NCBI RefSeq assembly: GCF_001708505.1
Contig: NZ_CP015992.1
Location: forward strand, 2,553,898-2,577,897
Direction of reading: 5' to 3'
DNA from: Pseudomonas sp. TCU-HL1
GTDB taxonomy: Bacteria; Pseudomonadota; Gammaproteobacteria; Pseudomonadales; Pseudomonadaceae
Length of the DNA stretch: 24,000 nucleotides
A program made the position numbers and the translations under genes. Below, piece after piece: positions 2,760 through 18,623 of the stretch. A model generated the notes under the pieces. The model saw only the letters and a list, made by a program, of their open reading frames with translations. It was not told the origin of the DNA and made no database searches. Position 1 is the first letter of the stretch, and each line of letters begins with the position of its first letter.

Positions 2760-5537
2760 ATGTACCAATCCCACGGGCATATATGCCTGTTCCACAACGA
2801 TAACGATATAGGGATTCAGGCAGTGGACGCAGTTCTCAACCCCGCAGCCGGTAGCCGTCAGCGCTCCAAACTCGTGACCCCGCAGGCATCTGCCGATTAC
2901 CTGCCAAGACCCCAGGTCCAGGCGGCCCTGGCCGCTCATCCTCATGCTCGCCTCCTGCTGTTCTCGGCCCCCGCCGGGTTTGGCAAGACCACCGCCCTCG
3001 CAGCCCTGGCCGAGCAACGTCGCGCTGCCGGCAGCGCAGTGGCCTGGTTTTCCCTTGAAGCCGAGGATGACGATCCCGCGCGCTTCTTCCCGCAATTGAT
3101 CAAGACCCTCGGTGAAGCCGTGCCCGGCGTCGGTGACTACGCCCGTGGCTACCTGCAGAACACCATGCAGGTGCCGGTGAACGCCGTGCTGGAAAGCCTG
3201 CTGGTGGACCTTGCCCGGCTCAACGGGCCGGTTCTGCTGGTGCTGGATGACCTGCACCTGCTCAAAGACCCGGAGCTGTTTTCCGCCCTCGGCCGCCTGG
3301 TGCGCCTGGCTCCTGCCAGCTTCAGCCTGGCCGTCGGCAGCCGCTCCCTGCCGCCGCTCAGCCTGGCCACCCTGCGTGCCAAGGGCTGGCTGCTGGAGAT
3401 CGGCCTCGATGAGCTGCGCCTGACCGCCGAAGAAACCCGTGATTACCTCGTCCGTACCGGCCTGCAACTGGATGATGCCGTATTGGCGGCGTTGCACAGC
3501 CATACCGAAGGGTGGGCGATAGGCGTCCAGCTGGCGAGCCTGTGGTTGCGCCACCAGCCTCAGGCCACCGGACAGATCGAGAGCCTGGGCAGTGACCAGG
3601 CCACGGTCGGCCAATACCTGCTGGCCAGTGTCTTCGAACAGCTGCCGGCCGACTTGCAGGACGCCTTGCTGGCCCTGGGGATCGCCAGCCAGCTCAGCGG
3701 CGACCTGGCCAATGCGCTGACCGGTCGCCCGGATGGTCAGGCGCTGTTGGAACGACTGGAAACCATGCAGCTGTTCCTCTTGCCACTGGACCGCGAGCGC
3801 CAGTGGTATCGCTTCCATCACTTGTTCGCCGACTTCCTGCGCAGCCGCCTCAAGGCCTGCGACCCGGAGCGCCTCAAGCAGCTGCACTTCAATGCCAGTC
3901 TCTGGTTCACCAATCACCACATGCAGAACCTGGCCATCGAGCACGCCAGCCTCGCAGAGGACCCGGAAATGCTCGCGGCCCTGGTGGACGGTTGCGGCCT
4001 GGAACTGATCAATCGCGGCCAGCTCAACAAGATCTACCGCTGGCGACAGAAAGTGCCGGATGACATTGCCGAACGTTACCCGACGCTGATCCTGGCGGAC
4101 GTCTGGAACCGCGCCATGGAAATGGCCCTGCCGGAAGCCAACCAGATGCTCGACGAGCTGCTGGCCCGTTGGGGTGGGACTCGTGCTGAGTCCCAATTGA
4201 GCGACAAGTACCTGGCTACCCTGGCGGTCAAGGCGGCCATCGCCCTGCAGAAGGATGACCTGGACCTCTGCGTATCCATTGCCCGCCGGGTGGAGGTCCA
4301 GCTCGGACGCAACCAGGCATTCCTCGAGGTCGCCATCCTGGTGATCGGCGCCATGGCCCTGGTGATCCTGGCCCAGCCGGACCAGGCCCGTCGCCTGCTG
4401 GCCCTGGCCCAGCAGCGCAATCACTTCCTCGAAGGCCGTTACCTGGACATGCAACTGGCCAACGTGGAAATCCTCCTTTCCCTTGAGCAGGGCCAGTTGA
4501 AGCAGGCGCATCTGCTTTATGAGCAGATGCGCGCCCAGGTCACGCCGCATCTGGGCGAGAAATCCCGCGCCATGGCCCTGCCGGTCATCGTCGAATCCCT
4601 GATCGCTTACCAGCAAGGCCGCCTGGAGGGGCTGGAAGAACGCCTCGGCACCGCGCTGAGCCACATCGACGTCATTCGGCCAATCGACATCTATGCCCAG
4701 GGCATGCTGTTCCTGGCACGCATTCAGCGCATGCGGGACAAGCCCAGGGAGGCCCAGGCAACACTGGTCCTGATGCAGAACCTGGCCGCGCGCAACCAGT
4801 CCTGGCGCTTCTATGCGCGGGCCGTGGCCGATGAGATTTCCCTGCTCCTCCAGGAACCCGGCACCGACCGCCTCAAGCGCGCCGAGCAACGCTTCAAGAG
4901 TGTGGACTGGAACAAACTGGCCGGTGGCGGCAGCCAGCACGGCGCCAACTCGACGCTCTGGGTGCAGGGGCTGATTCGCGTGCGCCTGCAACAGGCCCGT
5001 GGCCACTTCAGTGAAGCCCTGCACGAAATCACCCAGTTGCGCGGCAAGCTCCTGCCCAACTGGCATGGCCTGCAACGCCTGCGCTTGGACCTGCTGGCGG
5101 CCCTCAGCTACCAGCGCCTGGGTTACCAGGAACGGGCCCAGAGCCTGCTGGTGCAGTGCCTGCTTTGTGCCGAGCGCGAAGGCGCGCGCAGCCTGTTCAT
5201 CGAAGAAGGCGAAGCCATTCGCCAATTGCTCCAGCAGCTGGAGTCGGCAGAACGCCAGCCCGCCTTGCAGGGGTTCATCCGTGGCCTGCTGGCGATCTGG
5301 CCCGGCCAGGACGCACGCAAATCCCAGGATGTGCTCGAAGAAGGCCTGACCGACCGCGAACGTGAAGTGGTCTGCCTGGCCGCCAAGGGAATGTCCAACG
5401 AAGAGATCGGTCAGCAGCTCGCCCTGGCGCTGGGGACCGTCAAATGGCACCTGCACAACATCTACGAAAAGCTCAAGGTGCGTAACCGGACCCAGGCGAT
5501 CCGGCGTACCCGCGAGCTGGGGCTGCTCGAACCATGA
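2760..5537 (+). CDS. Large ATP-binding LuxR-family (LAL/MalT-like) transcriptional regulator 1
   Basis: 925-aa ORF. Walker A FSAPAGFGKTT and Walker B VLLVLDDLH, a long helical middle region, and a C-terminal LuxR/GerE HTH (LTDREREVVCLAAKGMSNEEIGQQLALALGTVKWHLHNIYEKLKVRNRTQA). The start is uncertain: the first ~60 nt are AT-rich and contain a palindrome, so GTG 2823 is a plausible alternative. Confidence 0.85.
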   Translation: MYQSHGHICLFHNDNDIGIQAVDAVLNPAAGSRQRSKLVTPQASADYLPRPQVQAALAAHPHARLLLFSAPAGFGKTTALAALAEQRRAAGSAVAWFSLEAEDDDPARFFPQLIKTLGEAVPGVGDYARGYLQNTMQVPVNAVLESLLVDLARLNGPVLLVLDDLHLLKDPELFSALGRLVRLAPASFSLAVGSRSLPPLSLATLRAKGWLLEIGLDELRLTAEETRDYLVRTGLQLDDAVLAALHSHTEGWAIGVQLASLWLRHQPQATGQIESLGSDQATVGQYLLASVFEQLPADLQDALLALGIASQLSGDLANALTGRPDGQALLERLETMQLFLLPLDRERQWYRFHHLFADFLRSRLKACDPERLKQLHFNASLWFTNHHMQNLAIEHASLAEDPEMLAALVDGCGLELINRGQLNKIYRWRQKVPDDIAERYPTLILADVWNRAMEMALPEANQMLDELLARWGGTRAESQLSDKYLATLAVKAAIALQKDDLDLCVSIARRVEVQLGRNQAFLEVAILVIGAMALVILAQPDQARRLLALAQQRNHFLEGRYLDMQLANVEILLSLEQGQLKQAHLLYEQMRAQVTPHLGEKSRAMALPVIVESLIAYQQGRLEGLEERLGTALSHIDVIRPIDIYAQGMLFLARIQRMRDKPREAQATLVLMQNLAARNQSWRFYARAVADEISLLLQEPGTDRLKRAEQRFKSVDWNKLAGGGSQHGANSTLWVQGLIRVRLQQARGHFSEALHEITQLRGKLLPNWHGLQRLRLDLLAALSYQRLGYQERAQSLLVQCLLCAEREGARSLFIEEGEAIRQLLQQLESAERQPALQGFIRGLLAIWPGQDARKSQDVLEEGLTDREREVVCLAAKGMSNEEIGQQLALALGTVKWHLHNIYEKLKVRNRTQAIRRTRELGLLEP

Positions 5538-8245
5538 CCGACCTCTGCCTGTCTCTCCCGCACCAGATTCCCTTGTTGCGCACCAAGCTGTTTCCGGCCG
5601 ACGCCGGCGGCCGCTCGGTGTTGCCGCGCCGGGCCCTGATCGAGCGCCTGCATACTGCGCGAGCGCGCCGCGTGCTGGTGCTCAGTGCCCCGGCCGGTTT
5701 CGGCAAGAGCACCATACTCAGCCTGTTCCGCCAGCACCTGCAGGCGGAAGGGGCGCACGTTGCCTGGCTCTCCTGTGATGAGGCCGACAGTGAACCGCAG
5801 CGCTTGCTGCAGTACCTGGTCGCCGCCGTGGATGCCGCCTTGCCTGGCTTCGGTGGCAACACCGTCGGGCTGCTGCAGGGGGATGTGAACTGGCCCATCG
5901 AAGCGGTGATCGACGCCTTCGTCGGCGACCTCAAGCGCATCGACGGTGAGCTCTACCTGATGCTCGATGACTTCCATCGCATCCGTCATGCGGCCCTGGA
6001 CCAGGGCGCTCGCTACCTGATCGAAAACCTGCCGTCCCATGTCCATCTGGTCAGCAGCACCCGCTTCACACCGCGCCTGTCGTTCGGCGAGGCCGAGTCG
6101 CTGCTGCTGAACGCCGAAGACCTGCGGCTCACGCTTGAGGAAACCGAAGCCTACTTCCGGGAAGTGCATCAGCTGCCGCTGTCCAGCAGCGAAGTGCGCC
6201 AGCTCCATGCCCGTACCGAGGGTTGGATCACGGCACTGCACCTGGCCAGCCTGGCGTTGGCCCGGCATCCCGACCGCGCGGCGTTCCTGGCCAGCCTCAG
6301 CGGGACCGAACGCAACATCGCCGACTACCTGACCGAAGACGTACTCGACAGCTTGCCCGAAGCGTTGCGACAGTTCCTCGACCAGACCTCGGTGCTGGAC
6401 GAATTCTGCGCCGACCTGTGCAACGCCCTGACCGGGCGACGGGATGGCCTCGACATGCTCATGCGCCTGCAGCGCGAGCAGTTGTTCATTATCCCGCTGG
6501 ACGAGCAGGGCGAGTGGTTCCGTTACCACCATCTGTTCGCCGAGTACCTGCAGGGCCGGCTGGCGCGCCAGACCGATGCGGCAACACTGCTGCACGCGGC
6601 GGCGCGCTGGTGCGAAGGGCACGACCTGCCCGACCGTGCCATCAAGTACGCGCTGCGCGGCCGCGATTTTGCCTTTGCCGCCGAACTGCTGGAGCGCCAG
6701 GGCGCGAGGCTGATTGCCGGTAACCGGGTCTACGGCATCCTGTCCATGCTCAAGGGCGTGCCCGCCGAGGTTATTCGCGAGCACCCCGTGTTCCAGATTT
6801 TCTACGCCTGGCAACTGGCCTTCGAGCAACGCTTCGCCGAATCCGAAGCGCTGATCGAGGAAGTCAGCAACCGCCTGCTGCAAGGGCGTGGCAAGGTGAT
6901 CCATTTCGGTCTGGGCGAACTGCTGGCCGCCTCCCAGGTGCTCAAGGCTCTGGTGATGCTCTACCAGGACAAGCTGGAGGCCTGTCTCAAGGTGGCCCGC
7001 CAGTGGTTGGCCATGGTGCCGGACAACCAGCCGGTGTTCCGCGCCAGTCTCGCCTGCGTGCAGGCCGCGGCCTATGCGTTGATGGGCGAGTTTGGCGAAG
7101 CTGCCAGGGCCATCGCCGTCGCCCGTGACAACCTCAAGCGGGTGGACAGCGAATACCTGCATGTGATGACCAGCCTGATCGAGGCGCTGATCTGCAAAGA
7201 AAGTGGAGAGCTGGAGCGTGGTCGCGCCATTGCCGAAACCGCGCGTGCCCGCGTGGAGCGAGTGTTCGGTCGCCGCAGCCGGGTAGGCGGGCCGCTGGCT
7301 CTGGCTTACGCCGACCTGCTGTATGAGCAGGATCGCCAGGCCGCGATCCTCGCCGAACTGCCCCTGGCCACCACCTGGCGCGACGTGGCGACCCCGGTCG
7401 AGTTGATCAGTCGCGGTCAACTGGTGATGGCGCGTGCGCGATTCTTTGCCGGCGAAGCGGAGCAGGCGCTGGTCCAGCTCGACGAATGGCTGGATGGCCT
7501 GCAGGGCGCCGGCTACGAACGGGTCTTCGCCCATGGCATGGCGTGCAAGGTGCAGTTTCTGTTGTGGATGCGTCGGCCCAACGAAGCCGAGCGCATCTGC
7601 CTGCAATTGCAGCAGCATCTGGCCGTGCTGCCGCTGGCGCGCTATTCCGATGCCCACACGGTGCTGGCCCTCACCGAAGCGCGCCTGGCCCTGACCGAGC
7701 GGCGCCCCGAGCGGGCCCAGGCCAGTCTGGAGAGTTGCCTGGCACGGCAGCAGGACGAACACCAGCGCGACCGTCGCCTGCGCCTGTCGCTGTTACTTTC
7801 TGTGGCGTATTGGCGCAGAGGTAACAGCGAAAAAGCCTTCGCCCTGTTCCAGAACACCCTGGAAGAGGCCTGGAGCCGGGGCTACCGTCGGCTGTTCCAG
7901 GATGACGCACTCTGGTTGTTGCCGCTCTGGGACGCCTGGCGCACCGCCGAGCCCAAGCGTGCGGGGGCTTGGCAGGGGGTTGCCGAAAGTCTGCGCGAGC
8001 AGTGCCGCCGCCTTGCCGTTGACCCGGAAACTTTTGATGAAAATCAGGATGTTAGTCATCGCGAGCGGGAAATCCTGCGCTATGTCGCTGCCGGCCTTTC
8101 CAACCGCGATATCGCCCAGGCGGTGCACCTGTCCGAAGCCACCATCAAGTGGCACCTGCACAACCTGTTCGCCAAGCTCGGGGTGCGCAGCCGGACCCAG
8201 GCGGTATTGAAAGGCAAGAGCCTGGGCCTCTTGAGCGAGGCCTGA
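5534..8245 (+). CDS. Large ATP-binding LuxR-family (LAL/MalT-like) transcriptional regulator 2
   Basis: 903-aa ORF. ATG 5534 overlaps the upstream TGA (ATGA, 5534-5537). Walker A LSAPAGFGKST, Walker B LYLMLDDFH, C-terminal LuxR HTH (VSHREREILRYVAAGLSNRDIAQAVHLSEATIKWHLHNLFAKLGVRSRTQA). Confidence 0.88.
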   Translation: MTDLCLSLPHQIPLLRTKLFPADAGGRSVLPRRALIERLHTARARRVLVLSAPAGFGKSTILSLFRQHLQAEGAHVAWLSCDEADSEPQRLLQYLVAAVDAALPGFGGNTVGLLQGDVNWPIEAVIDAFVGDLKRIDGELYLMLDDFHRIRHAALDQGARYLIENLPSHVHLVSSTRFTPRLSFGEAESLLLNAEDLRLTLEETEAYFREVHQLPLSSSEVRQLHARTEGWITALHLASLALARHPDRAAFLASLSGTERNIADYLTEDVLDSLPEALRQFLDQTSVLDEFCADLCNALTGRRDGLDMLMRLQREQLFIIPLDEQGEWFRYHHLFAEYLQGRLARQTDAATLLHAAARWCEGHDLPDRAIKYALRGRDFAFAAELLERQGARLIAGNRVYGILSMLKGVPAEVIREHPVFQIFYAWQLAFEQRFAESEALIEEVSNRLLQGRGKVIHFGLGELLAASQVLKALVMLYQDKLEACLKVARQWLAMVPDNQPVFRASLACVQAAAYALMGEFGEAARAIAVARDNLKRVDSEYLHVMTSLIEALICKESGELERGRAIAETARARVERVFGRRSRVGGPLALAYADLLYEQDRQAAILAELPLATTWRDVATPVELISRGQLVMARARFFAGEAEQALVQLDEWLDGLQGAGYERVFAHGMACKVQFLLWMRRPNEAERICLQLQQHLAVLPLARYSDAHTVLALTEARLALTERRPERAQASLESCLARQQDEHQRDRRLRLSLLLSVAYWRRGNSEKAFALFQNTLEEAWSRGYRRLFQDDALWLLPLWDAWRTAEPKRAGAWQGVAESLREQCRRLAVDPETFDENQDVSHREREILRYVAAGLSNRDIAQAVHLSEATIKWHLHNLFAKLGVRSRTQAVLKGKSLGLLSEA

Positions 8246-8474
8246 GGTGGGGAGCCCCATTGCCCTCCATCCCTTGGATGGGCTGGCAGCGGAGGAGGGG
8301 CTCAGTAGTTTTGTTCCCAGGTCGAGAAGCATGGTGCTTCACGAATCCTCGCCGGCCGCGACTAAGGAAGCAGCGTCCGGCCTGGAGATCGGCGTGAGCC
8401 GGTCCAGCTGCCGATGACAGGAGTCGACGGCACGCCCTGGGGCAACCCACCTGTGAACTTTGGAGATAAAAAGA

Positions 8475-8927
8475 ATGAAAAGCTTCAAACAACTGGCTCT
8501 GGCCGCTGCTGTACTCGCCGCTCCGTTCATGGCCCAGGCCGACCTCAAGGCCATGGACGATTCCGCTCTGTCCGGTGTGACCGGCCAGGACGGCATCAGC
8601 ATCTCGGGTAGCTTCAACGGCTCCATCGGCAGCATCGTCTACACCGACACTGAAACCAGTGGCACCACCACCACCGCCGGCACCCTGCGTCTGGAAACCG
8701 TGTCCTTCACCGGCTTTGACATCCTCGACAGCGATCCGCTGAAGATCGACGTGATCGACGGTGGCGCTGGCGGCAACGACAAACTGCAGATCAGCCTGCC
8801 GGCGATCACCGGCCAGCTCTCGGTGGGCGCCATCCGCGTGGGCGACGCCAGTGCCGCCAGCATCGGCTCCCTGGCCGTCAACGGCATGAACATGTCCGGC
8901 TCCACCCTCAAGGTCTGGGGCCACTGA
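8475..8927 (+). CDS. Small secreted beta-rich protein of unknown function (candidate structural subunit/substrate of the downstream envelope machinery)
   Basis: I place the start at ATG 8475, with GGAG at 8462-8465, rather than the track's TTG at 8460. Signal peptide MKSFKQLALAAAVLAAPFMAQA with an AxA cleavage site. The 128-aa remainder has no Cys, is rich in G/S/T/I/D and shows repeated alternating polar/apolar stretches. The N-terminal motif L..MDDSALSGVTGQDGI resembles, from tentative memory, an uncharacterised DUF family sometimes mislabelled 'heme utilization protein'. Confidence 0.8.
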   Translation: MKSFKQLALAAAVLAAPFMAQADLKAMDDSALSGVTGQDGISISGSFNGSIGSIVYTDTETSGTTTTAGTLRLETVSFTGFDILDSDPLKIDVIDGGAGGNDKLQISLPAITGQLSVGAIRVGDASAASIGSLAVNGMNMSGSTLKVWGH

Positions 8928-8950
8928 CAGCCGCGTTTATCCTGTAACCC

Positions 8951-8985
8951 GGAAAGCCCCGTCGCCCCTTCGGCGGGGCCTTTCC
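8951..8985 (+). other. GC-rich RNA hairpin between the small-protein gene and the C39 gene (no U-tract)
   Basis: GGAAAGCCCCGTCG-cccctt-CGGCGGGG(C)CTTTCC: about 14 paired positions with one bulged C and one G-U pair, beginning 24 nt after the stop at 8927 and followed by ccgcaacg rather than a T-run. Confidence 0.6.
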
Positions 8986-9014
8986 CCGCAACGAGTCGAG
9001 TAGTCGGAACGGCA

Positions 9015-9776
9015 ATGATCGAAATCCTGGTTGGCAGTTTGCTGGGTCTGTTCGGCTTCACCCAGGCGGTGGATACCAAGCCGCAGCCGCAAGGCTCGGT
9101 GAATATCAGCCAGCCGCTCTCGCCCAATGGCCCCTATCGCGAAACCGCGATGGTCGAGCCGATGAGCCAGTTGCAGTTCCGCAACGTCATCCGCCAGGCA
9201 TACGACTACAGCTGCGGCTCTGCCGCGCTGACCAGCCTGCTGGACTACTACCTGGGCCGGAACCTGGAAGAACGCCAGGTGATGGAAGGCCTGCTGCGCT
9301 ACGGCGAAGCCGACAAGATCGTCGAGCGTCGTGGCTTCTCGCTGCTGGACATGAAGCGCTTCGTCAGTGCGCTGGGTTACAAGAGCGGCGGCTTCCGTGC
9401 CGAGTTCGCCGACCTCGACGCCCTGGAACACCCGGCCATCGTTCCGATCCACTATGGCGGCTTCAAGCATTTCGTGGTGGTGCGCGACGTCTACAACGAC
9501 CACGTATTCGTCGCGGACCCCGCACTTGGCAACATCAGTTTCACCCGTACCCGTTTCGAGGAAATCTGGGACCAGAACGTCCTCTTCGTGATCTTCCCCT
9601 CGGGCAATGAACCGCAGAACGCCATGGCCCTCACCGAGCGCGACCTGCGCCTGGTGGACGACCGCATCGTCAGCCTGCTGGCGTTCCAGGAGTTTCCGCA
9701 GATCACCAAATTCACCCAGAACGAAATTGACGAACTGGGTTCGGGGGGCGATATCCGCTACATCCGTCGCAAGTGA
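9015..9776 (+). CDS. Exported stand-alone peptidase C39-family (bacteriocin-processing-type) cysteine protease
   Basis: 253 aa. Hydrophobic N-terminus MIEILVGSLLGLFGFTQA (signal peptide or anchor). C39 signature RQAYDYSCGSAALTSLLDYY (Gln61, Cys67), GFKHFVVVRD (His152) and FVADPALGNISFTRTRFEEIW (Asp168). No in-frame upstream start is possible before the stop at 8925-8927. Confidence 0.8.
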   Translation: MIEILVGSLLGLFGFTQAVDTKPQPQGSVNISQPLSPNGPYRETAMVEPMSQLQFRNVIRQAYDYSCGSAALTSLLDYYLGRNLEERQVMEGLLRYGEADKIVERRGFSLLDMKRFVSALGYKSGGFRAEFADLDALEHPAIVPIHYGGFKHFVVVRDVYNDHVFVADPALGNISFTRTRFEEIWDQNVLFVIFPSGNEPQNAMALTERDLRLVDDRIVSLLAFQEFPQITKFTQNEIDELGSGGDIRYIRRK

Positions 9777-9813
9777 CACCCGCTCATAACAAGAAAGACC
9801 TGGGGATAGCACC

Positions 9814-10818
9814 ATGGGACCAAGGGAATACGCATGGCTGGCCATGCTGGTGCTCTGTACCAGTCTGCCGCTGCATGCCGAGGAAGCCTCGGTGGACGAC
9901 GCGCGTGATGCGCTGAGCAAGAAGGACGATGACGCCGATAGCGCCAAGGCGCTGGAGGAGGTCTTCCAGGCGTCCGAGAAGAGCTACACGCTCCTGAAGA
10001 AGGGCGAGCGCACACTCACCTACGGGGTCGACTATTCGCTGGTGCGCGATACCCAGATCGAAACCTTCCGCACGGGCTCCAACATCTACAGCGTGCTCAG
10101 CCAGAGCGAAGCCCAGCACACCTTCACCAACTCCTTCACGTTCGACTATGGCGTGTGGGACAACCTGACCTTCAGCGTGCGCCTGCCCTTCGTCGCCAAG
10201 TACGACACCGAGCGCGACCTGAACGTCTACAGCCTGGGCGACATCTCCGCGAGCCTGCGCTGGCAGCCCTGGTCGTCCACCCGTGGCCGCCCGGTCACCA
10301 CGCTCTTCGCCACCCTCGGCTTGCCCACCGGCGAAAGCCCCTACGACATCAATTCCGAGAACGACCTGTCGACCGGCAACGGCTACTACAGCCTGGGCGT
10401 AGGCGCCAACATGTCCTACGTCATCGACCCGGTCGTGCTCTTCGGCTCGGTCGGATACACCTACAACCTGCCGGTGCGCGACATTCACCAGATGCGCGGC
10501 GGGCGCATCCTGGAAGACGTGGAGCCGGGCGACACGCTGAACTTCAGCATGGGCTTTGCCTATGCGCTTTCCTACGACGTGTCCCTGGCCACCTCCTACC
10601 AGATGGCCTACACGATGAAGCCGACCTACAAGTTCCAGAACGCCAACCTGGAAGGCACCGAGCAGACCAGTTCGATCATGAACTTCTCACTCGGCCTGCG
10701 AACGTCGCCGGACTACATCGTCAACATCAACGCCGGCTTCGGTATGACCGAGGATTCTCCGGACGTGCTCCTGGGGCTTTCCGTTCCCCTCGACATCAAA
10801 GGCCTCAAGGCCCAGTAA
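9814..10818 (+). CDS. Outer-membrane beta-barrel of the 'MetA-pathway of phenol degradation'-like transporter family
   Basis: 334 aa. Signal peptide ...LVLCTSLPLHA/EE, then a ~45-aa acidic, probably helical segment. The rest shows alternating beta-strand patterns with the family-typical LGDISASLRW...LFATLGLPTGESPYD...LSTGNGYYSLGVG motifs. Confidence 0.7.
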   Translation: MGPREYAWLAMLVLCTSLPLHAEEASVDDARDALSKKDDDADSAKALEEVFQASEKSYTLLKKGERTLTYGVDYSLVRDTQIETFRTGSNIYSVLSQSEAQHTFTNSFTFDYGVWDNLTFSVRLPFVAKYDTERDLNVYSLGDISASLRWQPWSSTRGRPVTTLFATLGLPTGESPYDINSENDLSTGNGYYSLGVGANMSYVIDPVVLFGSVGYTYNLPVRDIHQMRGGRILEDVEPGDTLNFSMGFAYALSYDVSLATSYQMAYTMKPTYKFQNANLEGTEQTSSIMNFSLGLRTSPDYIVNINAGFGMTEDSPDVLLGLSVPLDIKGLKAQ

Positions 10819-10836
10819 CCGGCGAGCGAGCACTTC

Positions 10837-12429
10837 ATGAGCATGCATCTTTCGCCGCTTGCGTGGGCGATTGCCGGGGTCGGCCTGTGCTGGGTGGGCC
10901 TGGCGCAGGCGCAACTGGCCAACGACCTGACCATCGGCAACCCCAAGGCCATGGCCATGGGCAACGCCATCACCGCCGACTCTTCCGGGATCGATGCGGT
11001 GCACTACAACCCGGCCGCCCTGACCAAGCTCAAGGGTCGCCAGACCACGGTGAAGCTCCTGACCGGGGTGATGGATATCCGCGCCGGGTTCGAAGCACCC
11101 GAAGACTACGGCTTCCTCGGCTACGACGACGACCCGGTGGCCAACCGCAGCAGCCGCACCCTGACCCCCGCCATGTACCTGCCCGGCATGGGCGGCATGA
11201 CCGAGGTGCCGGTGCTGTTTGCGCCACTGGCGGGACTGTCGATCAACCCGCCCGGCTCCAAGTTCACCTTCGCCACCAACGTCTACGCGCCCATGGCCCT
11301 GGGCTACTCGCGGGACTCCGACAGCGATCCGGCCCGCTACCAGGGGCGCGAAGTGGCCTTGCAGCGCATCACCTACTTCTCACCCTCGGTGGGTTACCAG
11401 GTGAACGACGAACTGGCGCTCGGCCTGTCCATCGGCTTTTCCCACCAGGCCATGGCGCTCAACCAGGACTTCCGCAACCCCGGCTTCCTCACCGGACTGA
11501 CCCGGCTGTTCAACGAGTTCCTCTGCCTGCCGGGAATGGGGGAAGTGGTGTCGGGCCTGATCAACGTCTGTGGCGGCAAGATCGGCCCCTTCGACACCCT
11601 GGCCAACATGGACCTGGACCTGCAGCAGTCGCTTTCGCCGACCTGGAACATCGGTTTTCTCTGGGAGCCCACCGACTGGTTCGCCTGGGGCGCGACCTAC
11701 CAGAGCGAGGCGCGCATGCACCTTCAAGGCAAGTACCGGGTGGACTACAGCAAGGACTGGCAGGGCTTCTGGTCCGGCCTGCAGTCCTCGCTCTTCGGCC
11801 AGGTGCTGAGCCCGCTGTTCCCGCTTGGCAATGTCGACGAGGAAGTCGGCAACGCATCGCTCGACATGACCTACCCGGACAACTTCTCCACCGGCATCAA
11901 GCTCGTGCCCTTTGATCGCTGGCAGGTCAACTTCGACCTGAAGTGGAGCGGCTACAGCGACTGGAACGAGTTCGAGATCGAGTTCGACCGCGAGCTGGAC
12001 CTGCTGCGCATCGCCAAGAACTTCGGCGGCGGCAACGCCACCAGCCACAGCATCATCCTTGACCGCGGCTACCGTGACACCTGGAGCTGGGCGCTCGGCG
12101 TGCAGTACCAGTGGACCGACCGGCTGGCGCTGCGCGCCGGCTACGAATGGCGCCCCTCGGCGATTCCCGACGACAAGGCCGACGTGCTCGCGCCCATCGG
12201 TGATGCCCACCTGTACGGCCTGGGCCTGGGCTACCGCTGGGACAAGGACACCAACATCGACATCGGCTTCAACTACTTCACCACCCAGCAGAAAACCCGG
12301 GCTGACAGCAGTTGCAACCTCAACTGCACCGGTATCGACAACCTGGTCTACAACCCCTACGCGGGCCAGAGCGTCGAGACCTCGGTGAAAGCCTACATCC
12401 TGGCCCTGACCTACCAGACGACCTTCTGA
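10837..12429 (+). CDS. FadL/TodX/OMPP1-family outer-membrane hydrophobic-compound channel (oversized, 530 aa)
   Basis: Signal peptide ...WVGLAQA/QL. N-terminal hatch-like motif GNAITADSSGIDAVHYNPAAL. Beta-strand periodicity throughout and a C-terminal barrel signature LALTYQTTF. Two Cys pairs (CLPG...VCGG, SSCNLNC). From memory this corresponds positionally to PAO1 PA1764, counted among the FadL paralogues. Confidence 0.8.
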   Translation: MSMHLSPLAWAIAGVGLCWVGLAQAQLANDLTIGNPKAMAMGNAITADSSGIDAVHYNPAALTKLKGRQTTVKLLTGVMDIRAGFEAPEDYGFLGYDDDPVANRSSRTLTPAMYLPGMGGMTEVPVLFAPLAGLSINPPGSKFTFATNVYAPMALGYSRDSDSDPARYQGREVALQRITYFSPSVGYQVNDELALGLSIGFSHQAMALNQDFRNPGFLTGLTRLFNEFLCLPGMGEVVSGLINVCGGKIGPFDTLANMDLDLQQSLSPTWNIGFLWEPTDWFAWGATYQSEARMHLQGKYRVDYSKDWQGFWSGLQSSLFGQVLSPLFPLGNVDEEVGNASLDMTYPDNFSTGIKLVPFDRWQVNFDLKWSGYSDWNEFEIEFDRELDLLRIAKNFGGGNATSHSIILDRGYRDTWSWALGVQYQWTDRLALRAGYEWRPSAIPDDKADVLAPIGDAHLYGLGLGYRWDKDTNIDIGFNYFTTQQKTRADSSCNLNCTGIDNLVYNPYAGQSVETSVKAYILALTYQTTF

Positions 12430-13586
12430 TGAAAGCGCCCATCCTGTTTATCGCCCTGACTCTTGCCTGCACCACCCAGGCCAGCAGTGGCCGCTACCTG
12501 ACCTGGATCGACGAGCAGGGCAGGGTGCACAACACCTTCGTCGATACCCGCTACAGCGAGCAGCAGCGCCAGGCCGCCAAACGCATCGCCCAGAGCGACC
12601 AGGCGCGCCTCAAGGATGGCGATGGCACGCTCTGGCCCGGCGGCGCCACGGCTGGCGAGAGCAAGCGGCGCTACTTCACCTGGGTGGATGCCAGCGGCAA
12701 CTTGCAGAACAGCTTCTATGCGGCAGGGCAGGTGGAGTCCGGACAGCGCAACTTCACCTTGCCGAACGGCCAGCGATCGGAGGAATACATCGACTCCGAC
12801 GTACTCGAAGGGCGCGGCTACTCCCGGCCGGAGCAGGGCGTGGCCTATTTCACCTGGGTCGACGAGCAGGGCCGCACCCACAACTCGCCTGCACCGGCGC
12901 GTGGCCGGGACGAAGGACGCGACGCGGAGCGGCCCGGCCCCATTGCCTACACCGAAGCGCGCGAGATGGAGTTCCAGCGCAAGGCCGCAGGCCTGCCAGC
13001 TCTGGACGGCCAGCCCACTGCCGCGATGAAGGCCCTGCTGGCGGGCAGCGAAGCGCAGGGTGAGGCGCTCTACCAGAGCCTGGTGGACCGCTGTTGCGGC
13101 CAGCTCCCGGACGAAGCCTTCACCGAGGTGTCGACTGCGGAGCCGCGCTATGAGGAGCTGAACAACCTCTCGCCCAGCTTCGACTTTCCCATGGGCCGCA
13201 GCTACTACAGCGCCCTCAAGCTGCCGCGTTCCCAGCACAGCTATGGCCTGCGCATCCGCAGTTTCGCCAACCGCCAGGTGGTCTACCCCTCGCTACTCTT
13301 CCTCGACGAAGCCAAGCGCCCGACCCGCCTGGTGAGCGACGCCGTCTACCAGCTCCACGGCGAAACCTGGTACCGCTACGCCTTCATCGAAGGCACGGTG
13401 CAGGTTCGCGCCAACCAGGGCGAACGCTATGTCCTGCTGTTGACCACGGATGAAGACCGCAGCCTGCAGACGCTGGACAACAAACCCTTCAAACGACCGA
13501 TGCAGAACCTGGCCCTGAGCGAGTCAGGCATGCAGGTACACGAGCACGGCGACCAGGGCTCGTTCGAACTGGCGATCGTGAAATAA
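12429..13586 (+). CDS. Exported MalM-like protein with three N-terminal DUF4124-like repeats
   Basis: Start chosen at ATG 12429, a TGATG overlap with the upstream stop; the track's start at 12312 lies inside the FadL-like gene. Signal/lipoprotein-like N-terminus MKAPILFIALTLACTTQASS. Three copies of Y(L/F)TW(I/V)D..G..(H/Q)N(T/S). The C-terminal region YGLRIRSFANRQVVYPSLLFLDEAKRP...GERYVLLLTTDEDRSLQT aligns by eye with E. coli MalM (LTLTSEVNKQTSVFAPNVLILDQNM...QKLYVLVFTTEKDLQQT). Confidence 0.7.
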   Translation: MKAPILFIALTLACTTQASSGRYLTWIDEQGRVHNTFVDTRYSEQQRQAAKRIAQSDQARLKDGDGTLWPGGATAGESKRRYFTWVDASGNLQNSFYAAGQVESGQRNFTLPNGQRSEEYIDSDVLEGRGYSRPEQGVAYFTWVDEQGRTHNSPAPARGRDEGRDAERPGPIAYTEAREMEFQRKAAGLPALDGQPTAAMKALLAGSEAQGEALYQSLVDRCCGQLPDEAFTEVSTAEPRYEELNNLSPSFDFPMGRSYYSALKLPRSQHSYGLRIRSFANRQVVYPSLLFLDEAKRPTRLVSDAVYQLHGETWYRYAFIEGTVQVRANQGERYVLLLTTDEDRSLQTLDNKPFKRPMQNLALSESGMQVHEHGDQGSFELAIVK

Positions 13587-13611: not shown

Positions 13612-13704
13612 CCTGTGGGAGCGATTTCAATCGCGACGGACTGCAGCGCAGTCCGCATCCCGGAGCGCCTGCCGGGTTTCGCGAATGAATTCGCTCCCAC
13701 AAGG
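13612..13704. repeat. Inverted REP pair (type A variant, inverted and forward) flanking a short palindrome
   Basis: cctgtgggagcgatttcaatcgcgacgg ... ggactgcAGCgcagtcc ... gccgggtttcgcgaatgaattcgctcccacaagg. The two arms are reverse complements of each other apart from a few bases. Confidence 0.8.
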
Positions 13705-13774
13705 ACAGGCGCACGGTGCAGGCCCAGCCGCGCTATGCTGGCACCTCCCTGCGACCCGAAACGGATTTCCTGCC

Positions 13775-14524
13775 ATGTCCGACACCCGTGCGCTCTTCAC
13801 CCGCAATTCCGACGCTTATCGCGCCAACCGGCCCACCTACGACCCCGTCCTGATCGCCTGGCTCAGCCAGCAGGCACCGGACCTGGCGCTAGCCTGGGAC
13901 TGTGGCTGCGGCAGCGGCCAGGCGACCGTCGATCTGGCCCGGCATTTCCAGCGCGTGGTGGGCACCGATGTGAGTGCGCAGCAACTGGCCAAGGCCGAGC
14001 CGGCCGCCAACATCGACTACCGCTGTGAACCGGCGGAGCAGACGTCGCTGGCTAATGCCAGCGTGTCCCTGACCGTGGTGGCGCAGGCGCTGCACTGGTT
14101 CGACCTGGAATGTTTCTATGCAGAGGTGCGACGGGTGAGCCGGCCGGGCGGGCTGCTGGCGGTGATCTCCTACAACCTCACGTCGATCACGCCCGAGGTG
14201 GATGCGCTGGTCAGCCACCTCTATCACGACATTCTCGGCAGCTACTGGGCCGAAGGGCGCAAGCACGTGGAACAGGGTTATAGGACCCTGCCATTCCCCT
14301 TCGAGCGCATCGAGGTGTCGCCCTTTACCCTCGACGCACAGTGGGACCTTGCGCGCCTGCTGGGCTACCTGGAAAGCTGGTCGGCTCTGGCGACCTATCA
14401 GGCCACCCACGGCAGCAACCCCCTCGACCCGCTCCGCGAACGCTTCCAGCAAGCCTGGGGCGACCCGGCCAGCATCCGCCGGGTGAGCTGGCCGTTGGTG
14501 GTGAATCTGGGCAGAGTGAGCTGA
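13775..14524 (+). CDS. Class I SAM-dependent methyltransferase
   Basis: Start placed at ATG 13775, because the track's start at 13685 lies inside a REP element. SAM-binding motif ALAWDCGCGSGQATVDLARHF plus VVGTDVS and a PGGLLAVISY post-II motif (Methyltransf_11-like). Confidence 0.8.
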   Translation: MSDTRALFTRNSDAYRANRPTYDPVLIAWLSQQAPDLALAWDCGCGSGQATVDLARHFQRVVGTDVSAQQLAKAEPAANIDYRCEPAEQTSLANASVSLTVVAQALHWFDLECFYAEVRRVSRPGGLLAVISYNLTSITPEVDALVSHLYHDILGSYWAEGRKHVEQGYRTLPFPFERIEVSPFTLDAQWDLARLLGYLESWSALATYQATHGSNPLDPLRERFQQAWGDPASIRRVSWPLVVNLGRVS

Positions 14525-14544: not shown

Positions 14545-14645
14545 TTGTGGGAGCGAATTCATTCGCGAAGAGGGGGCGCAGCCGACCGGGCTAATCTCCG
14601 GCAGGATTGTGTCCTGCATCGCGATTGAAATCGCTCCTACAAATG
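14545..14645. repeat. Inverted REP pair (type A)
   Basis: ttgtgggagcgaattcattcgcgaag ... catcgcgattgaaatcgctcctacaaatg: same family as 13612-13704, lying between two convergent genes. Confidence 0.8.
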
Positions 14646-14664: not shown

Positions 14665-15333
14665 TCAAGCCGGCAAGCTCGCATCCTTCCCATTGTGCGA
14701 GGTGAAATCCACCGACCGGTCCACCATGTTGATCGCCGCCACCAGTTGCTCGGGTTGGGAACGGGCCGAGGCCATGGTCCACTGATCGAAGCGGTCGTTA
14801 CCGATGCGCACCATGCGGATGTGCGTGGTGCGGTCGGCATCGACCACCGGGTCCGGGTCATAGAAGCCCAGCTTGCGCCGCAGCTTCTCCAGGTCCGCCG
14901 GGTCGCCGGTCAGGAACAGCCAGCCCGGCCCCACATGGTGGGACTCGGCGTATTCCCGAAGAACCTCCGGTGTATCCAGCTCTGGCTGCAGGGTAATGGA
15001 GTACATGAAGACATCCCGTCCGGCGCGGTCGCCCAGGAGCTTCTGGGTGCCGCGCAGGTTGGAAGTCATGGTGGGGCAGAGGCCGCCGCACAGCGTGTAC
15101 ATCATGTTGAAGGCCACCACCTTGTCGCGCATGAGGTCGTCGTAGAGCTTCACGCGTTTGCCCAGGTGGGTGTAGAGCGCGACGTTGGGGAAGTAGCGGG
15201 CGCCGAAGCTGTCGCCTTCGGCGTACTCCGGCTCAGGGGCGCCCCAGGGGCGAGCGACTAGGCCACTACCCAGCGCGGCCAGGCCTGCGGCAGCCACACC
15301 GGCGCCGAACAGCAGGTTTCTGCGAGTGTTCAT
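14665..15333 (-). CDS. SCO1/SenC-family thioredoxin-like copper chaperone with Tat-type signal
   Basis: 222 aa. N-terminus MNTRRNLLFGAGVAAAGLAALG (twin-Arg). CxxxC metal motif as LCGGLCP plus a downstream His (TTHIRMV). Lies 37 nt downstream of the multicopper oxidase on the same strand. Confidence 0.75.
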   Translation of the reverse strand: MNTRRNLLFGAGVAAAGLAALGSGLVARPWGAPEPEYAEGDSFGARYFPNVALYTHLGKRVKLYDDLMRDKVVAFNMMYTLCGGLCPTMTSNLRGTQKLLGDRAGRDVFMYSITLQPELDTPEVLREYAESHHVGPGWLFLTGDPADLEKLRRKLGFYDPDPVVDADRTTHIRMVRIGNDRFDQWTMASARSQPEQLVAAINMVDRSVDFTSHNGKDASLPA

Positions 15334-15370: not shown

Positions 15371-17254
15371 TCAGCTGACGCCGCACCCGGCTGGCGGTTC
15401 GGGCGGTGTGTCGTCCTCGATGTCCCAGCGCAACATCATGCCGTGGTCCTCGTGGATCACGTTGTGGCAGTGCATGACGTACTTGCCGGTGAAATCGCGG
15501 AAGCGCATGAACACCCTGACCGCCTCGTTCTTGCCGAGCACATAGACGTCCTTGCGCCCTCGTTCGTGTTCCGGAATGGCCACGGGCAGGCCGTTGACCG
15601 TTTTGCTGAGGATGCGGCCTTCCTCGAAGTGAATATGCACCGGGTGCTGCCAACCGCCGCTCTCGTTGACCAGTTCCCAGATCTCGCACTCGCCCTTGCC
15701 GATCTTGGCGCTGGTGTCGAGGATGTTTTCCGGCTTGCCGTTCACCGCCCATTCGCCGCCCTTGCGGTCGAACACCCAGCGGCGCACCTTGGCCTGCGCG
15801 ATCTCTTCATCGCACAGCGGGCGCAACGGGCGCAGCACGTCAGGCACCTGGCTGAGGTCCTGCTCCGGCGGGTCACGATCCACCAGCAGCTTGAGCACCT
15901 TGGTGCCGGAGCCGCTCACGTTGTCCGGCCCCTTGGTGGTGTCCTGGATCAGGCGGTTGGTGAGGAACAGCTGGGTGCCGATGGGGTACCTGGAGAAGTC
16001 CACCACCAGGTCGGCCCGCTCGGCGACGCCCAGATGCACCTTGCCCATATTGCGAATGGGCGCGGGCAGCAGGTTGCCGTCGTTGGCAATGTAGGTGAAG
16101 GTCTGCGCCTTGCCCTTGCTGTCGTTCAGGTAGAACTCATAGAAGCGCGACGGGCCGGCATTCAGCAGGCGCAGGCGGTATTTGCGCCGGGCCACACGCA
16201 GCACTGGCTCGATCTTGCCGTTGACCAGCGTCTTGTCGCCCAAGGTGCCGTCGGGGCTGAAACGGTCGAATACGAGCTGGCCCTTCGAGTCAAAGCGCAT
16301 GTCGTTGAAGCTCAGCATGTAGTCGTACGGGAAGCTGGGCAGGCGCAGGGCTTCGGGGCTCGGGTCCTTCTCGTCGCCGGAATCCAGGTGGTCGAATAGG
16401 ACGTAGAAGCCGAACATCCCGCGTACCACGTTTTGCGACGTGGCCTGCCAGGTGTGGTCGTGGAACCACAGGGTGCCGAGCGCCTCGCGGTAGTCGCCGA
16501 TGCCGTTCTGCATTTCATCCAGGCCGGCGTAGACGTTGGGGTAGAAGTGGTCCTTGTACTCGCCCTTGTAGTCCAGGGTCAGGCCCTGCTTGTTGGCACT
16601 GAAGAAGTCACCGGGGAAACCGTCACTTTCCGAGGGGCAGTGCAAGTTGTGCAGGTGCACCGAGATATAGGGCACCCCAACACCCTTGTGATCCTTGGGC
16701 AGCTTGCAGTGGAAGCGGCAGAGCACCGGCTGGCCGTAGCGGGCGAAGATGATCGGGCTGAAGCTCTCCGGCGTGGAATCGGCCGCGCGGTAGCTCCAGA
16801 CCTTGATTTCCGGCAGGTCCGGGTGAGCCTTCCATGGACGTTCCACCACGTTGATTTCATAAAGGGTCGGATTGGCGCCCAACTGGTCGTAGCGCTGGTG
16901 CGGCTTGCGACCGCATTCGCCGTGCTCGGCGTCGGCGTTGGCGGTTGGGGCGACTACCTGCACGCCGTCGGAGCCATGGAGAACGCCGACCGGGTTCAGC
17001 GGGCTCATCTGGTTGGGCAGGAACTCCTTCCAGGGCCTGGTTCTCGGGCTGGGGACATCGGTGGTGTCGCTATCCTTGGCCTGGCTGTCGCTTTCCGCGA
17101 GCAGCAAGGGCAACGCGCTGGCGGCAGCGGACCATTTGAGGAACGAGCGGCGGTTGGCGTTATCGAGGGCGAGTTCGGGTTGGTGGGTGGCGTCGTCCGT
17201 GGACAGGCTGGCGACGAGTGGGGCTCCCTTGAATCTCAAGCGACTGATCTTCAC
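15371..17254 (-). CDS. Tat-exported multicopper oxidase (three-domain laccase/CueO/bilirubin-oxidase type)
   Basis: 627 aa with a GTG start preceded by GGAGG. Twin-arginine motif NRRSFLKWSAAASALPLL. All four copper-ligand motifs are present: HLHNLH, WFHDHTW, HPVHIHFE, HCHNVIHEDHGMM. Confidence 0.85.
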   Translation of the reverse strand: MKISRLRFKGAPLVASLSTDDATHQPELALDNANRRSFLKWSAAASALPLLLAESDSQAKDSDTTDVPSPRTRPWKEFLPNQMSPLNPVGVLHGSDGVQVVAPTANADAEHGECGRKPHQRYDQLGANPTLYEINVVERPWKAHPDLPEIKVWSYRAADSTPESFSPIIFARYGQPVLCRFHCKLPKDHKGVGVPYISVHLHNLHCPSESDGFPGDFFSANKQGLTLDYKGEYKDHFYPNVYAGLDEMQNGIGDYREALGTLWFHDHTWQATSQNVVRGMFGFYVLFDHLDSGDEKDPSPEALRLPSFPYDYMLSFNDMRFDSKGQLVFDRFSPDGTLGDKTLVNGKIEPVLRVARRKYRLRLLNAGPSRFYEFYLNDSKGKAQTFTYIANDGNLLPAPIRNMGKVHLGVAERADLVVDFSRYPIGTQLFLTNRLIQDTTKGPDNVSGSGTKVLKLLVDRDPPEQDLSQVPDVLRPLRPLCDEEIAQAKVRRWVFDRKGGEWAVNGKPENILDTSAKIGKGECEIWELVNESGGWQHPVHIHFEEGRILSKTVNGLPVAIPEHERGRKDVYVLGKNEAVRVFMRFRDFTGKYVMHCHNVIHEDHGMMLRWDIEDDTPPEPPAGCGVS

Positions 17255-18356: not shown

Positions 18357-18385
18357 TTGACCGAACAATGAGAATCATTATTATT
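18357..18385 (+). promoter_or_regulatory. Sigma70-type promoter with overlapping Fur box
   Basis: -35 TTGACC (18357-18362) and -10 TATTAT (18379-18384), spacer 16 nt. AACAATGAGAATCATTATT (18364-18382) matches the 19-bp Fur consensus GATAATGATAATCATTATC at 15/19 positions, counted by hand. Confidence 0.75.
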
Positions 18386-18389
18386 CCAA

Positions 18390-18506
18390 CCACTGGCCTC
18401 GCGGCCAGCTGGATAAGCTGACAAGCCCAGATTTCGGACTCATCAGATTATCTCCTCATCAGGCTAATCACGGTTATTGACCCGGCAAATTGCCGGGTCT
18501 TTTTTT
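18390..18506 (+). ncRNA. prrF: PrrF-type Fur-repressed small RNA (5' end approximate)
   Basis: About 115 nt between the Fur-box promoter and an intrinsic terminator. 5' hairpin CTGGCC-tcgc-GGCCAG. Central AUUAUCUCCUCAUCAGGCUAAUCACGG, which matches my memory of the conserved PrrF core. Terminator GACCCGGCAaatTGCCGGGTC followed by 7 T (18479-18506). No coding potential. Confidence 0.8.
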
Positions 18507-18550
18507 GCGATTTCTGTCCCTGAATGCCAGTGCAACGTCTGGCACGGAAA

Positions 18551-18623
18551 CGCTCCCTCTCCCGCTGGGAGAGGGTTGGGGTGAGGGCGCCGGTCCGTCG
18601 CGAATGAATTCGCTCCCACAAGC
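18551..18623 (+). repeat. Composite REP element (type B + type A), second copy
   Basis: cgctccctctcccgctgggagagggttggggtgagggcgccggtccgtcgcgaatgaattcgctcccacaagc: same architecture as 1214-1307. Confidence 0.8.

Follow-up and report, generated by a model that had tools for sequence, protein, structure and literature searches.

A probable Fil-type pilus operon with envelope-only assembly machinery in Pseudomonas sp. TCU-HL1

Five adjacent genes of Pseudomonas sp. TCU-HL1, here called p1 to p5, probably encode a Fil-type pilus, a thin surface fibre with a subunit of the DUF6160/FilA family, together with an assembly machinery confined to the cell envelope. They lie within a 24,000-nucleotide (nt) stretch of contig NZ_CP015992.1 (positions 2,553,898 to 2,577,897; the window), and the probability of this reading is put at roughly 0.65. 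The initial annotation had proposed an undescribed outer-membrane-only secretion or fibre-assembly system. "Undescribed" proves too strong, since NCBIfam holds models for FilA to FilD, Pfam holds a FilE_C family, and papers on Fil fimbriae exist. The FilA-F and FilB labels that it cited from automated annotation are indeed names of NCBIfam models. Systems of the Fil kind are already known by name and by purified fibres, and their assembly route is little studied; no published assembly mechanism for Fil pili was found in the literature. The operon is best classed as a Pseudomonas form of the Fil-type pilus system: its subunit is minimal, its fifth protein is of the MalM type, FilF is missing, and LAL regulators lie upstream. 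Reading it this way turns a vague "putative pilus system" label into a concrete, testable assembly model.

The five open reading frames (ORFs) all lie on the forward strand, and their boundaries and spacings agree with those first proposed. p1 (8475-8927) encodes a DUF6160/FilA-type pilus subunit precursor of 150 amino acids (aa), with expectation values (E) of 2.6e-27 to DUF6160 and 5e-17 to the FilA model. p2 (9015-9776) encodes an exported C39 cysteine peptidase of 253 aa, homologous to FilB and FapD, and p3 (9814-10818) a FapF-like outer-membrane beta-barrel of 334 aa, a FilC homologue and the proposed secretion pore. p4 (10837-12429) encodes a FadL/TodX-family outer-membrane barrel of 530 aa, homologous to FilD, and p5 (12429-13586) a periplasmic protein of 385 aa with DUF4124-like repeats and a C-terminal MalM domain. 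The intergenic gaps measure 87, 37 and 18 nt, while p4 and p5 overlap by 1 nt through the sequence TGATG (12427-12431). The ATG at 8475 is the right start of p1, giving 150 aa, because GGAG lies 9 nt upstream of it and homologues begin with MK; a TTG at 8460 was ruled out as a start on the same grounds.

Every product carries a signal-type N-terminus, as had been claimed. Judged by eye, a hydrophobic N-terminal stretch ends in an A-x-A-type site in each of them (AQA↓D, TQA↓V, LHA↓E, AQA↓Q and TQA↓S for p1 to p5, the arrow marking the cut). Scans against Pfam and NCBIfam found no ATPase, ABC or inner-membrane module in the five products, which agrees with the initial annotation on this point and supports its description of machinery restricted to the outer membrane and periplasm. 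The proposed family check by profile search recovered DUF6160, Peptidase_C39, Toluene_X/FadL and MalM.

The case for a fibre comes from the relatives of p1. The DUF6160 profile matches PDB entry 9XFV, "bacteria pilus (like)", at 3.1e-13. This structure, also named "pilus-like-alpha", is a helical filament from karst-cave water, resolved at ~3 Å with a rise of 11.7 Å and a twist of 283.86 degrees; it was assigned to UniProt A0A257CJ09 and served only as a handedness control (PMC12956863). The 173-residue 9XFV chain starts with DGVSIAGD, aligned to D39 of p1, and ends in MWAH, aligned to VWGH. It shares with p1 an N-terminal DG[IV]SI[AS]G strand and a C-terminal G-S-x-A-[IV]-N-x-h-x-h-x-G-x-x-h-x-h-W-[GA]-H strand, but differs in length from the 112 residues predicted for mature p1 and has a middle part that does not align. 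In Acinetobacter gp16, curved thin FilA pili co-purify with type IV pili and were identified by mass spectrometry (PMC10980823, PMC11539960). Strain Tol 5 also bears Fil fimbriae; Edman degradation identified their FilA, which runs as a monomer band on denaturing gels (SDS-PAGE), and the fimbriae are most abundant on triacylglycerol (PMC3498257). In A. baumannii, Fil proteins increase in pellicles and biofilms. The 9XFV filament and the purified Acinetobacter pili support the fibre as the best reading, and the purely periplasmic, uptake-only role for p1 that the initial annotation kept as an alternative is now unlikely, as the homologues form filaments. Since Fil pili are abundant on Acinetobacter and induced in A. 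baumannii pellicles and biofilms, and FilF is a source of vaccine candidates, a minimal form of the system conserved across Pseudomonadaceae, with a core homologous to the Fap amyloid exporter, is of wider interest.

The p1 precursor appears to consist of three parts: a signal peptide judged from its N-terminus (aa 1-22; 8475-8540), a propeptide predicted from double-glycine-type spacing (aa 23-38; 8541-8588) and a predicted mature subunit of 112 residues (aa 39-150; 8589-8924). As initially described, the protein is Cys-free and beta-rich, AlphaFold2 placing beta strands at residues 45-139, and it is free of Q/N-rich imperfect repeats, both in its own sequence and in an alignment with 34 homologues (61-95% identity to p1). 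Conservation in that alignment is highest just behind the signal peptide, in AQA↓DLKAMDDSALSGVTGQDGISISG, and in the C-terminal KVWGH; D29, G37, Q38, G40 and the C-terminal W-G-H are invariant. When p1 is aligned with eight Moraxellaceae FilA paralogues, L32, Q38, G40 and G149 are still invariant. Both ends are thus common to p1 and the 280-330-aa Moraxellaceae FilA proteins, the main difference being a large central insertion of ~130-170 residues in FilA that p1 lacks.

Peptidases of the C39 family cut after a double-glycine leader with the consensus L-S-x-x-E-L-x-x-I-x-G-G. The 16-residue segment that follows the Sec signal peptide of p1 has the spacing of such a leader and ends in MDDSALSGVTGQ↓DG. 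Counted from Q38, the segment DLKAMDDSALSGVTGQ places L at -15, M at -12, L at -7, V at -4 and Gly at -2. The motif [LM]-[DE]-[DE]-x-x-L-[SA]-x-x-[TS]-G-Q↓[DE]-G, together with the C-terminal G-H, recurs from the 150-aa Pseudomonas subunits to the 280-330-aa Acinetobacter ones. AlphaFold2 draws the leader stretch, at low confidence, as a helix continuous with the signal peptide. The predicted processing site coincides with the first residue of the solved environmental filament, and the operon, with five genes and a predicted mature subunit of only 112 residues, would lend itself as a model for the family as a whole.

The peptidase that may cut at this site is encoded next to the subunit. p2 matches Peptidase_C39 in Pfam (2.9e-20) and FilB and FapD in NCBIfam (9.5e-86 and 4e-34), and it aligns to the C39 domains of bacteriocin exporters (peptidase-containing ABC transporters, PCATs) in the PDB. 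Its C39 active site is intact: none of 74 distinct orthologues departs from Q61, C66, H152 and D168. FapD itself resides in the periplasm, and Fap secretion requires the active-site Cys of this C39 protein (PMC5557850). The comparison with PCATs (PDB 4RY2, 6MPZ) extends to the C39 fold, the catalytic Cys and His, and the leader hydrophobics at -4, -7, -12 and -15 with Gly at -2. In PCATs, however, the peptidase is a cytoplasmic domain of an ABC exporter, whereas p2 is a free-standing exported protein, the p1 leader follows a Sec signal peptide and has Gln at -1, and the operon lacks an ATPase.

p3 is the likely route across the outer membrane. It matches FilC at 1.6e-101 and FapF at 7e-20 in NCBIfam, aligns with the FapF structure (PDB 5O65) at 1.3e-14, and is 45.5% identical to A. 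baumannii FilC. In a Foldseek search, an AlphaFold2 model of p3 (mean predicted local distance difference test, pLDDT, 74) came out closest to FapF (7e-18; TM 0.70/0.80; root-mean-square deviation 3.4 Å), next to a COG4313 importer (1e-10) and then to autotransporter barrels. By sequence and by fold, p3 is therefore nearer to the exporter FapF than to the COG4313 importer. Both sequence and fold fit a FapF-type barrel, presumably with 12 strands. The initial annotation had placed the two barrels in the MetA-like and FadL/TodX families; p4 does match Toluene_X, and PF13557 (MetA-like) is precomputed for many p3 orthologues, but p3 itself, which has no match in the Pfam scan, lies closer to FapF. 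Only ~40 periplasmic residues precede its barrel, including a conserved helix, LEEVFQAxEKSYxLLKKG, while relatives carry N-terminal extensions of up to about 400 residues. Many FilC-like barrels (P0249-P0258, P0300, P0305; locus L085, 407-2557) have N-terminal extensions of 250-500 residues and measure 570-840 aa in all. Barrels of this family differ widely in their periplasmic part, of which p3 has almost none.

The arrangement of the operon is strongly conserved. A scan of one genome per species gave 427 loci with a p3 relative, of which the best 80 were kept; the search that yielded them used a narrow alignment, and all 80 belong to Pseudomonadaceae. The order p1 to p5 is identical in 80 of 80, and all five genes are present in 74, the other six being interrupted by contig ends, so the neighbourhood check bears out the expectation that the genes travel together. 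Upstream, these loci carry in order a gene for a HAD hydrolase, a chorismate-binding gene on the opposite strand and two MalT/LAL-type regulator genes, whereas the genes 3' of p5 are kept only among the closest relatives.

Loci outside Pseudomonadaceae come from individual look-ups and from chromosomes in PLSDB. Two Moraxellaceae loci (L081, L083) hold an opposite-strand chorismate-binding gene, one to four DUF6160 genes, and genes for the C39 peptidase, FilC, a FadL-like protein, FilE (Pfam FilE_C) and FilF. An A. baumannii locus (L093) has DUF6160 genes, C39, FilC, FadL-like, FilE (Pfam FilE_C) and FilF in the same order; several of its genes come from our own ORF and profile scan rather than the record's annotation, and the region expected to hold the chorismate-binding gene is unannotated. 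Locus L086 has HAD and chorismate-binding genes, a 358-aa DUF6160 protein, C39, FilC, a FadL-like protein and a DUF4124 protein. Locus L087 has two LAL genes, subunit genes of 230, 304 and 158 aa, all leader-bearing, then C39, FilC, a FadL-like protein and a MalM protein. To judge from their gene content, L086 and L087 are intermediate forms between the Pseudomonas and Moraxellaceae loci. As the layout is kept in several loci outside Pseudomonadaceae, the locus must be old, and the window holds one of several variants.

In the A. baumannii strain of L093 (VB31459; CP035931.1) the FilB C39 gene is split into ORFs at 7526-7963 and 7973-8365; it is missing from the record's gene table and may be a frameshifted pseudogene in a clinical isolate. 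Four PLSDB entries of 3.6-4.9 Mb listed as plasmids (NZ_AP026896.1, NZ_CP077849.1, NZ_CP064203.1 and NZ_CP104448.1) are evidently whole chromosomes of Aeromonas caviae or A. baumannii, from which fap and fil loci could be drawn. The opposite-strand chorismate-binding gene 5' of the fil-type genes lies within 549-2658 in the window and recurs in the Moraxellaceae loci L081 and L083 and in further gammaproteobacterial loci (L084, L086 and L087), and in several loci a HAD hydrolase gene precedes it. In P. aeruginosa PAO1 this pair is presumably thrH-pabB (PA1757-PA1758).

Compared with the Acinetobacter Fil system (filA-F; NF050077-NF050080, "putative pilus system", and FilE_C), p1 to p4 are homologous to FilA to FilD in the same order, and the subunit leader motif, the C-terminal G-H and the upstream opposite-strand chorismate-binding gene are shared. 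In contrast, the Pseudomonas subunit has 150 rather than 280-330 aa and is encoded once rather than by up to four paralogues, and p3 lacks the long low-complexity N-terminal linker of FilC. The Pseudomonas locus also adds the two MalT-type regulators and a conserved palindrome, it has no FilF, and p5 carries a MalM domain and three DUF4124-like repeats in place of FilE_C. p5 was correctly recognized as MalM-like in the initial annotation: its C-terminal MalM domain scores 5.8e-28 and DUF4124 matches weakly (4.8e-8) in Pfam. Three [RR]Y[FL]TW[VI]D..G...N repeats lie at aa 22-36, 80-96 and 139-153, and a Cys-Cys pair at 222-223 is invariant. A lipoprotein reading of p5 was rejected, as "TLAC" is no lipobox and its Cys is not conserved. 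The p5 gene occupies the FilE position of Acinetobacter, and p5 and FilE both have an [FY]xT[WI][IV]D..G motif just after the signal peptide. The MalM core of p5 matches FilE_C weakly (BLASTP E 0.25; hhalign E 9.5e-4, probability 22%). The evidence that p5 and FilE are related is weak, but all of it points in one direction.

Several observations weigh against a Fil-type pilus. All Fil and Fap scores fall below the curated NCBIfam cut-offs (62/220, 288/475, 340/630 and 523/970 bits for FilA to FilD; the FapD cut-off is 330 bits), although the Fil models are of the "exception" type and fitted to Acinetobacter. Judged by these thresholds, the operon falls short of full membership in the Acinetobacter Fil system, because the scores are too low, FilF is absent and FilE_C is unmatched: p5 matches MalM and has no direct match to FilE_C (PF22881), and tblastn with three FilF sequences did not find FilF, a lipoprotein of ~640 aa, in the window (best E 0.45). 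The alignment with 9XFV is limited to ~40 residues at either end of mature p1. The protein is ~60 residues shorter than the 9XFV subunit and roughly half as long as FilA, which makes filament formation by such a short form an extrapolation. The 9XFV chain was modelled from density with a database sequence, and it may begin where the density becomes ordered instead of at the mature N-terminus. The p1 model is of moderate confidence (pLDDT 75), and a Foldseek search with it against the PDB gave no match with E <1. We know of no C39 peptidase specificity for Gln at -1, as opposed to GG, GA and GS, and the bacteriocin-leader models gave no match to p1. With no positively charged n-region at its N-terminus, p2 is placed in the periplasm by analogy with FapD.

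One alternative is that p1 is secreted or displayed at the surface without forming a filament, for instance as an amphipathic factor or a toxin- or bacteriocin-like protein that the C39 peptidase matures and p3 releases. Bacteriocins have leaders of this double-glycine type, and the short p1 is without the central part of FilA. In addition, the distant locus L084 (8974-16496) has a C39/FilC-like/FadL-like trio, and the gene next in line encodes a secreted protein of 1132 aa without a Pfam match; no DUF6160 gene was found in this locus, so the machinery may handle other cargo. A non-filamentous p1 is nevertheless unlikely, given that both of the family-conserved termini ordered in 9XFV are retained, that a short subunit (158 aa) and a long one (304 aa) occur together in L087, and that no immunity gene and no toxin domain was found in the Pfam scan.

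A second alternative holds that p3 and p4 import fatty acids, lipids or aromatics, that p1, p2 and p5 are their periplasmic accessories, and that there is no fibre. p4 is a clear FadL-family member, matching Toluene_X (PF03349) at 2.4e-104 over residues 19-530 and FilD at 7.7e-157, with the NPA hatch region kept as HYNPAAL near its N-terminus; it also matches the P. aeruginosa FadL homologue (PDB 3DWO; 1.3e-8) and, weakly and partially, PorV/PorQ in NCBIfam (4.6e-8). The initial annotation had named PAO1 genes PA1761-PA1765 as the presumed collinear locus, and PA1764 is indeed listed as a FadL paralogue in the literature, where PA1761 and PA1762 appear as co-regulated hypothetical proteins. 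The PF13557 assignments of p3 orthologues, the COG4313 importer as second-best structural match and the abundance of Tol 5 fimbriae on triacylglycerol (PMC3498257) would also suit an uptake function. Yet p3 is nearer to FapF than to the importer in both sequence and fold, the homologues of p1 are extracellular filaments, and uptake leaves a conserved C39 peptidase and its leader-bearing partner without a role. The order of subunit gene, hairpin and machinery genes is moreover typical of pilus operons. Uptake as the sole function is accordingly quite improbable, and the operon is not a plain FadL uptake locus. Compared with FadL/TodX importers, p4 is ~100 residues longer than FadL and its gene sits inside a secretion or pilus operon.

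The initial annotation compared the operon aptly with the Fap system of Pseudomonas, but its statement that different parts are used does not hold for p2 and p3, which are homologous to FapD (4e-34) and FapF (1.3e-14; Foldseek 7e-18). Like Fap, the operon would be Sec-dependent and limited to the outer membrane, with a C39 peptidase and a barrel of the same families. Unlike Fap, it adds a FadL-like barrel and a MalM-like protein, its barrel has only the short segment described above where FapF has a coiled coil and a linker, and the Fil-type product is probably a pilus of folded subunits. Since an amyloid-repeat subunit, FapA and FapE are all missing, the operon is not a Fap system. That p1 is nonetheless secreted unfolded and forms cross-beta fibrils, as a second Fap-like amyloid, is very hard to credit in spite of the homology of p2 and p3 and of the small, Cys-free, beta-rich p1, because p1 has no Q/N-rich imperfect repeats, the five genes include no counterpart of FapA, FapB/FapC or FapE and match no other Fap model, the rise of 9XFV is 11.7 Å per folded subunit against a cross-beta repeat of 4.8 Å, and FilA migrates as a monomer on SDS-PAGE (PMC3498257).

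The kinship with Fap also provides a lead on that system. FapE is the only Fap protein found without its first ~70 residues, and the target of FapD is unknown (Rouse et al.; PMC5557850). In the fap locus of Aeromonas caviae (L092), FapE reads HFAPE-LADGELAHLRGR↓YVSSHGISYFGIEF after its signal peptide. In a Fap-type locus of Polymorphobacter (L096), the protein encoded between the C39 and FapF-like genes reads ITDYELATMRGG↓IRLPDG, and a 104-aa neighbour contains VSDAELGKVAGK↓. Across these two clear loci and a less clear third, from Cupriavidus (L095), the leader motifs are ELAHLRGR↓, ELATMRGG↓, ELGKVAGK↓ and LDKQRGG↓, in FapE-position proteins encoded at 6688-7335 (L092), 6624-6938 and 7620-8303 (L096) and 7339-8088 (L095). 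Positions 28-52 of the NCBIfam FapE model align with the A. caviae peptide (5e-5), so the motif is a property of the FapE family; the Polymorphobacter FapE-like leader has one weak match to a bacteriocin-leader model (E 0.095).

FapE-position proteins and p1 thus carry comparable leaders after their signal peptides, which suggests that FilA and FapE share one recognition logic. The FapE-position motif is a candidate FapD cleavage site, and a leader on these proteins is a candidate answer to the question of the FapD substrate. The FapD and FapF models of Dueholm et al. recover many non-Fap proteins, which those authors read as membership of larger families. It is conceivable, if somewhat short of an even bet, that Fil and Fap are branches of one unnamed outer-membrane-only pathway, in which a free periplasmic C39 peptidase cleaves double-glycine-type propeptides located immediately after the Sec signal peptides of FilA/DUF6160 proteins and FapE and so licenses passage through a FapF-type barrel, the FapD substrate being FapE at E-L-x-x-x-R-G-[GR]↓. 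If this is true, Fil pili would form a biogenesis class apart from chaperone-usher, type IV, type V, curli and conjugative pili. With curli (CsgA-G) and chaperone-usher systems, the operon shares a Sec-exported subunit, the absence of an inner-membrane energy source, an outer-membrane pore with periplasmic helpers, and a gene order that opens with the major subunit, with a hairpin behind it. Pfam and NCBIfam scans of the five products gave no homologue of CsgG/E/F and none of PapD/PapC-type chaperones and ushers.

Two MalT/LAL-type LuxR regulators are encoded directly 5' of the operon, on the same strand. The first (2760-5537, 925 aa; Pfam GerE, TPR_MalT and AAA_16/22) and the second (5534-8245, 903 aa; GerE, TPR_MalT and AAA_16) overlap by 4 nt. 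The pair occupies this position in the 80 Pseudomonadaceae loci, and LAL regulators also precede the operon in L087. Judging from this constant position, the first regulator probably controls the operon. About 200 nt before p1, the sequence CCATCC-CTT-GGATGG (8267-8281) forms a perfect palindrome. Its columns are at least 90% identical across 78 distinct upstream regions, and the exact sequence occurs in 69 of the 80 loci, once per locus, always 5' of p1 and nowhere else in them; in the window it occurs once, against 0.13 occurrences expected by chance. The half-site resembles the MalT box, GGA[TG]GA. Position and half-site both fit control by the adjacent MalT-type regulators, which makes the palindrome a candidate operator. 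It was ruled out as a terminator of the regulator gene, since its sequence is conserved beyond the pairing and no T-run follows. Consensus scans for sigma-70 promoters and terminators gave nothing useful within the operon, and Rfam found no known RNA in or adjoining it.

The p1-p2 spacer contains a predicted G+C-rich hairpin (8951-8985, +). An uninterrupted stem of at least 8 bp is present in 69 of 78 distinct spacers (median 12), compared with 8% of shuffled sequences, and a T-rich tail in 34. As the hairpins in these orthologous loci have 57 different stem sequences, it is structure rather than sequence that has been conserved. The element is likely an attenuator or an mRNA-stabilising terminator. 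A hairpin placed between subunit and machinery genes would be the usual device for making a major subunit in excess over its machinery.

Assembly of a Fil-type pilus by these proteins may proceed as follows. The regulator pair would activate a promoter 3' of the CCATCC-N3-GGATGG palindrome, and p1 would be produced in excess over the machinery, because the hairpin follows its gene. All five proteins presumably cross the inner membrane by Sec, as their N-termini indicate, and p1 would lose its signal peptide at AQA↓D. In the periplasm, p2 would recognize the DLKAMDDSALSGVTGQ leader and cut after Gly37-Gln38; the start of the 9XFV chain at the same point supports this cleavage, and the leader motif and the intact catalytic residues are in keeping with it. 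Mature p1, now starting with DGISISG, would pass through p3, whose homology to FapF makes it the candidate pore, and polymerise once outside the cell, forming not an amyloid but a helical filament in which the subunits are folded, by analogy with 9XFV and FilA pili. On the same analogy, the conserved N- and C-terminal strands of p1 are likely contact or assembly elements. p5 would most likely serve the unfolded subunit as a chaperone or adaptor in the periplasm. p4 would most likely act as an anchor or docking site, comparable to the FadL-like PorV of type IX secretion, or as a channel for hydrophobic compounds captured by the fibre.

The unit ends at p5, as the downstream genes are kept only in the closest relatives and a pair of inverted elements resembling repetitive extragenic palindromes (REP) follows. 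This pair (13614-13701) has two 23-nt arms that are 91% complementary. The REP-like element, GTGGGAGCGAATTCATTCGCGA, is present in six copies in the window, all of them intergenic (1282-1303, 13615-13636, 13679-13700, 14547-14568, 14619-14640 and 18598-18619), where 0.03 would be expected. Two inverted pairs of it bracket a methyltransferase gene (13685-14524) that lies 3' of p5 and is unrelated to the operon. Farther downstream, the window encodes the iron-responsive small RNA PrrF at 18357-18507 on the forward strand (Rfam RF00444, 133.8 bits). Its neighbours include genes for a Tat-exported multicopper oxidase (15371-17254) and a SCO1/SenC protein (14665-15333), both on the reverse strand.

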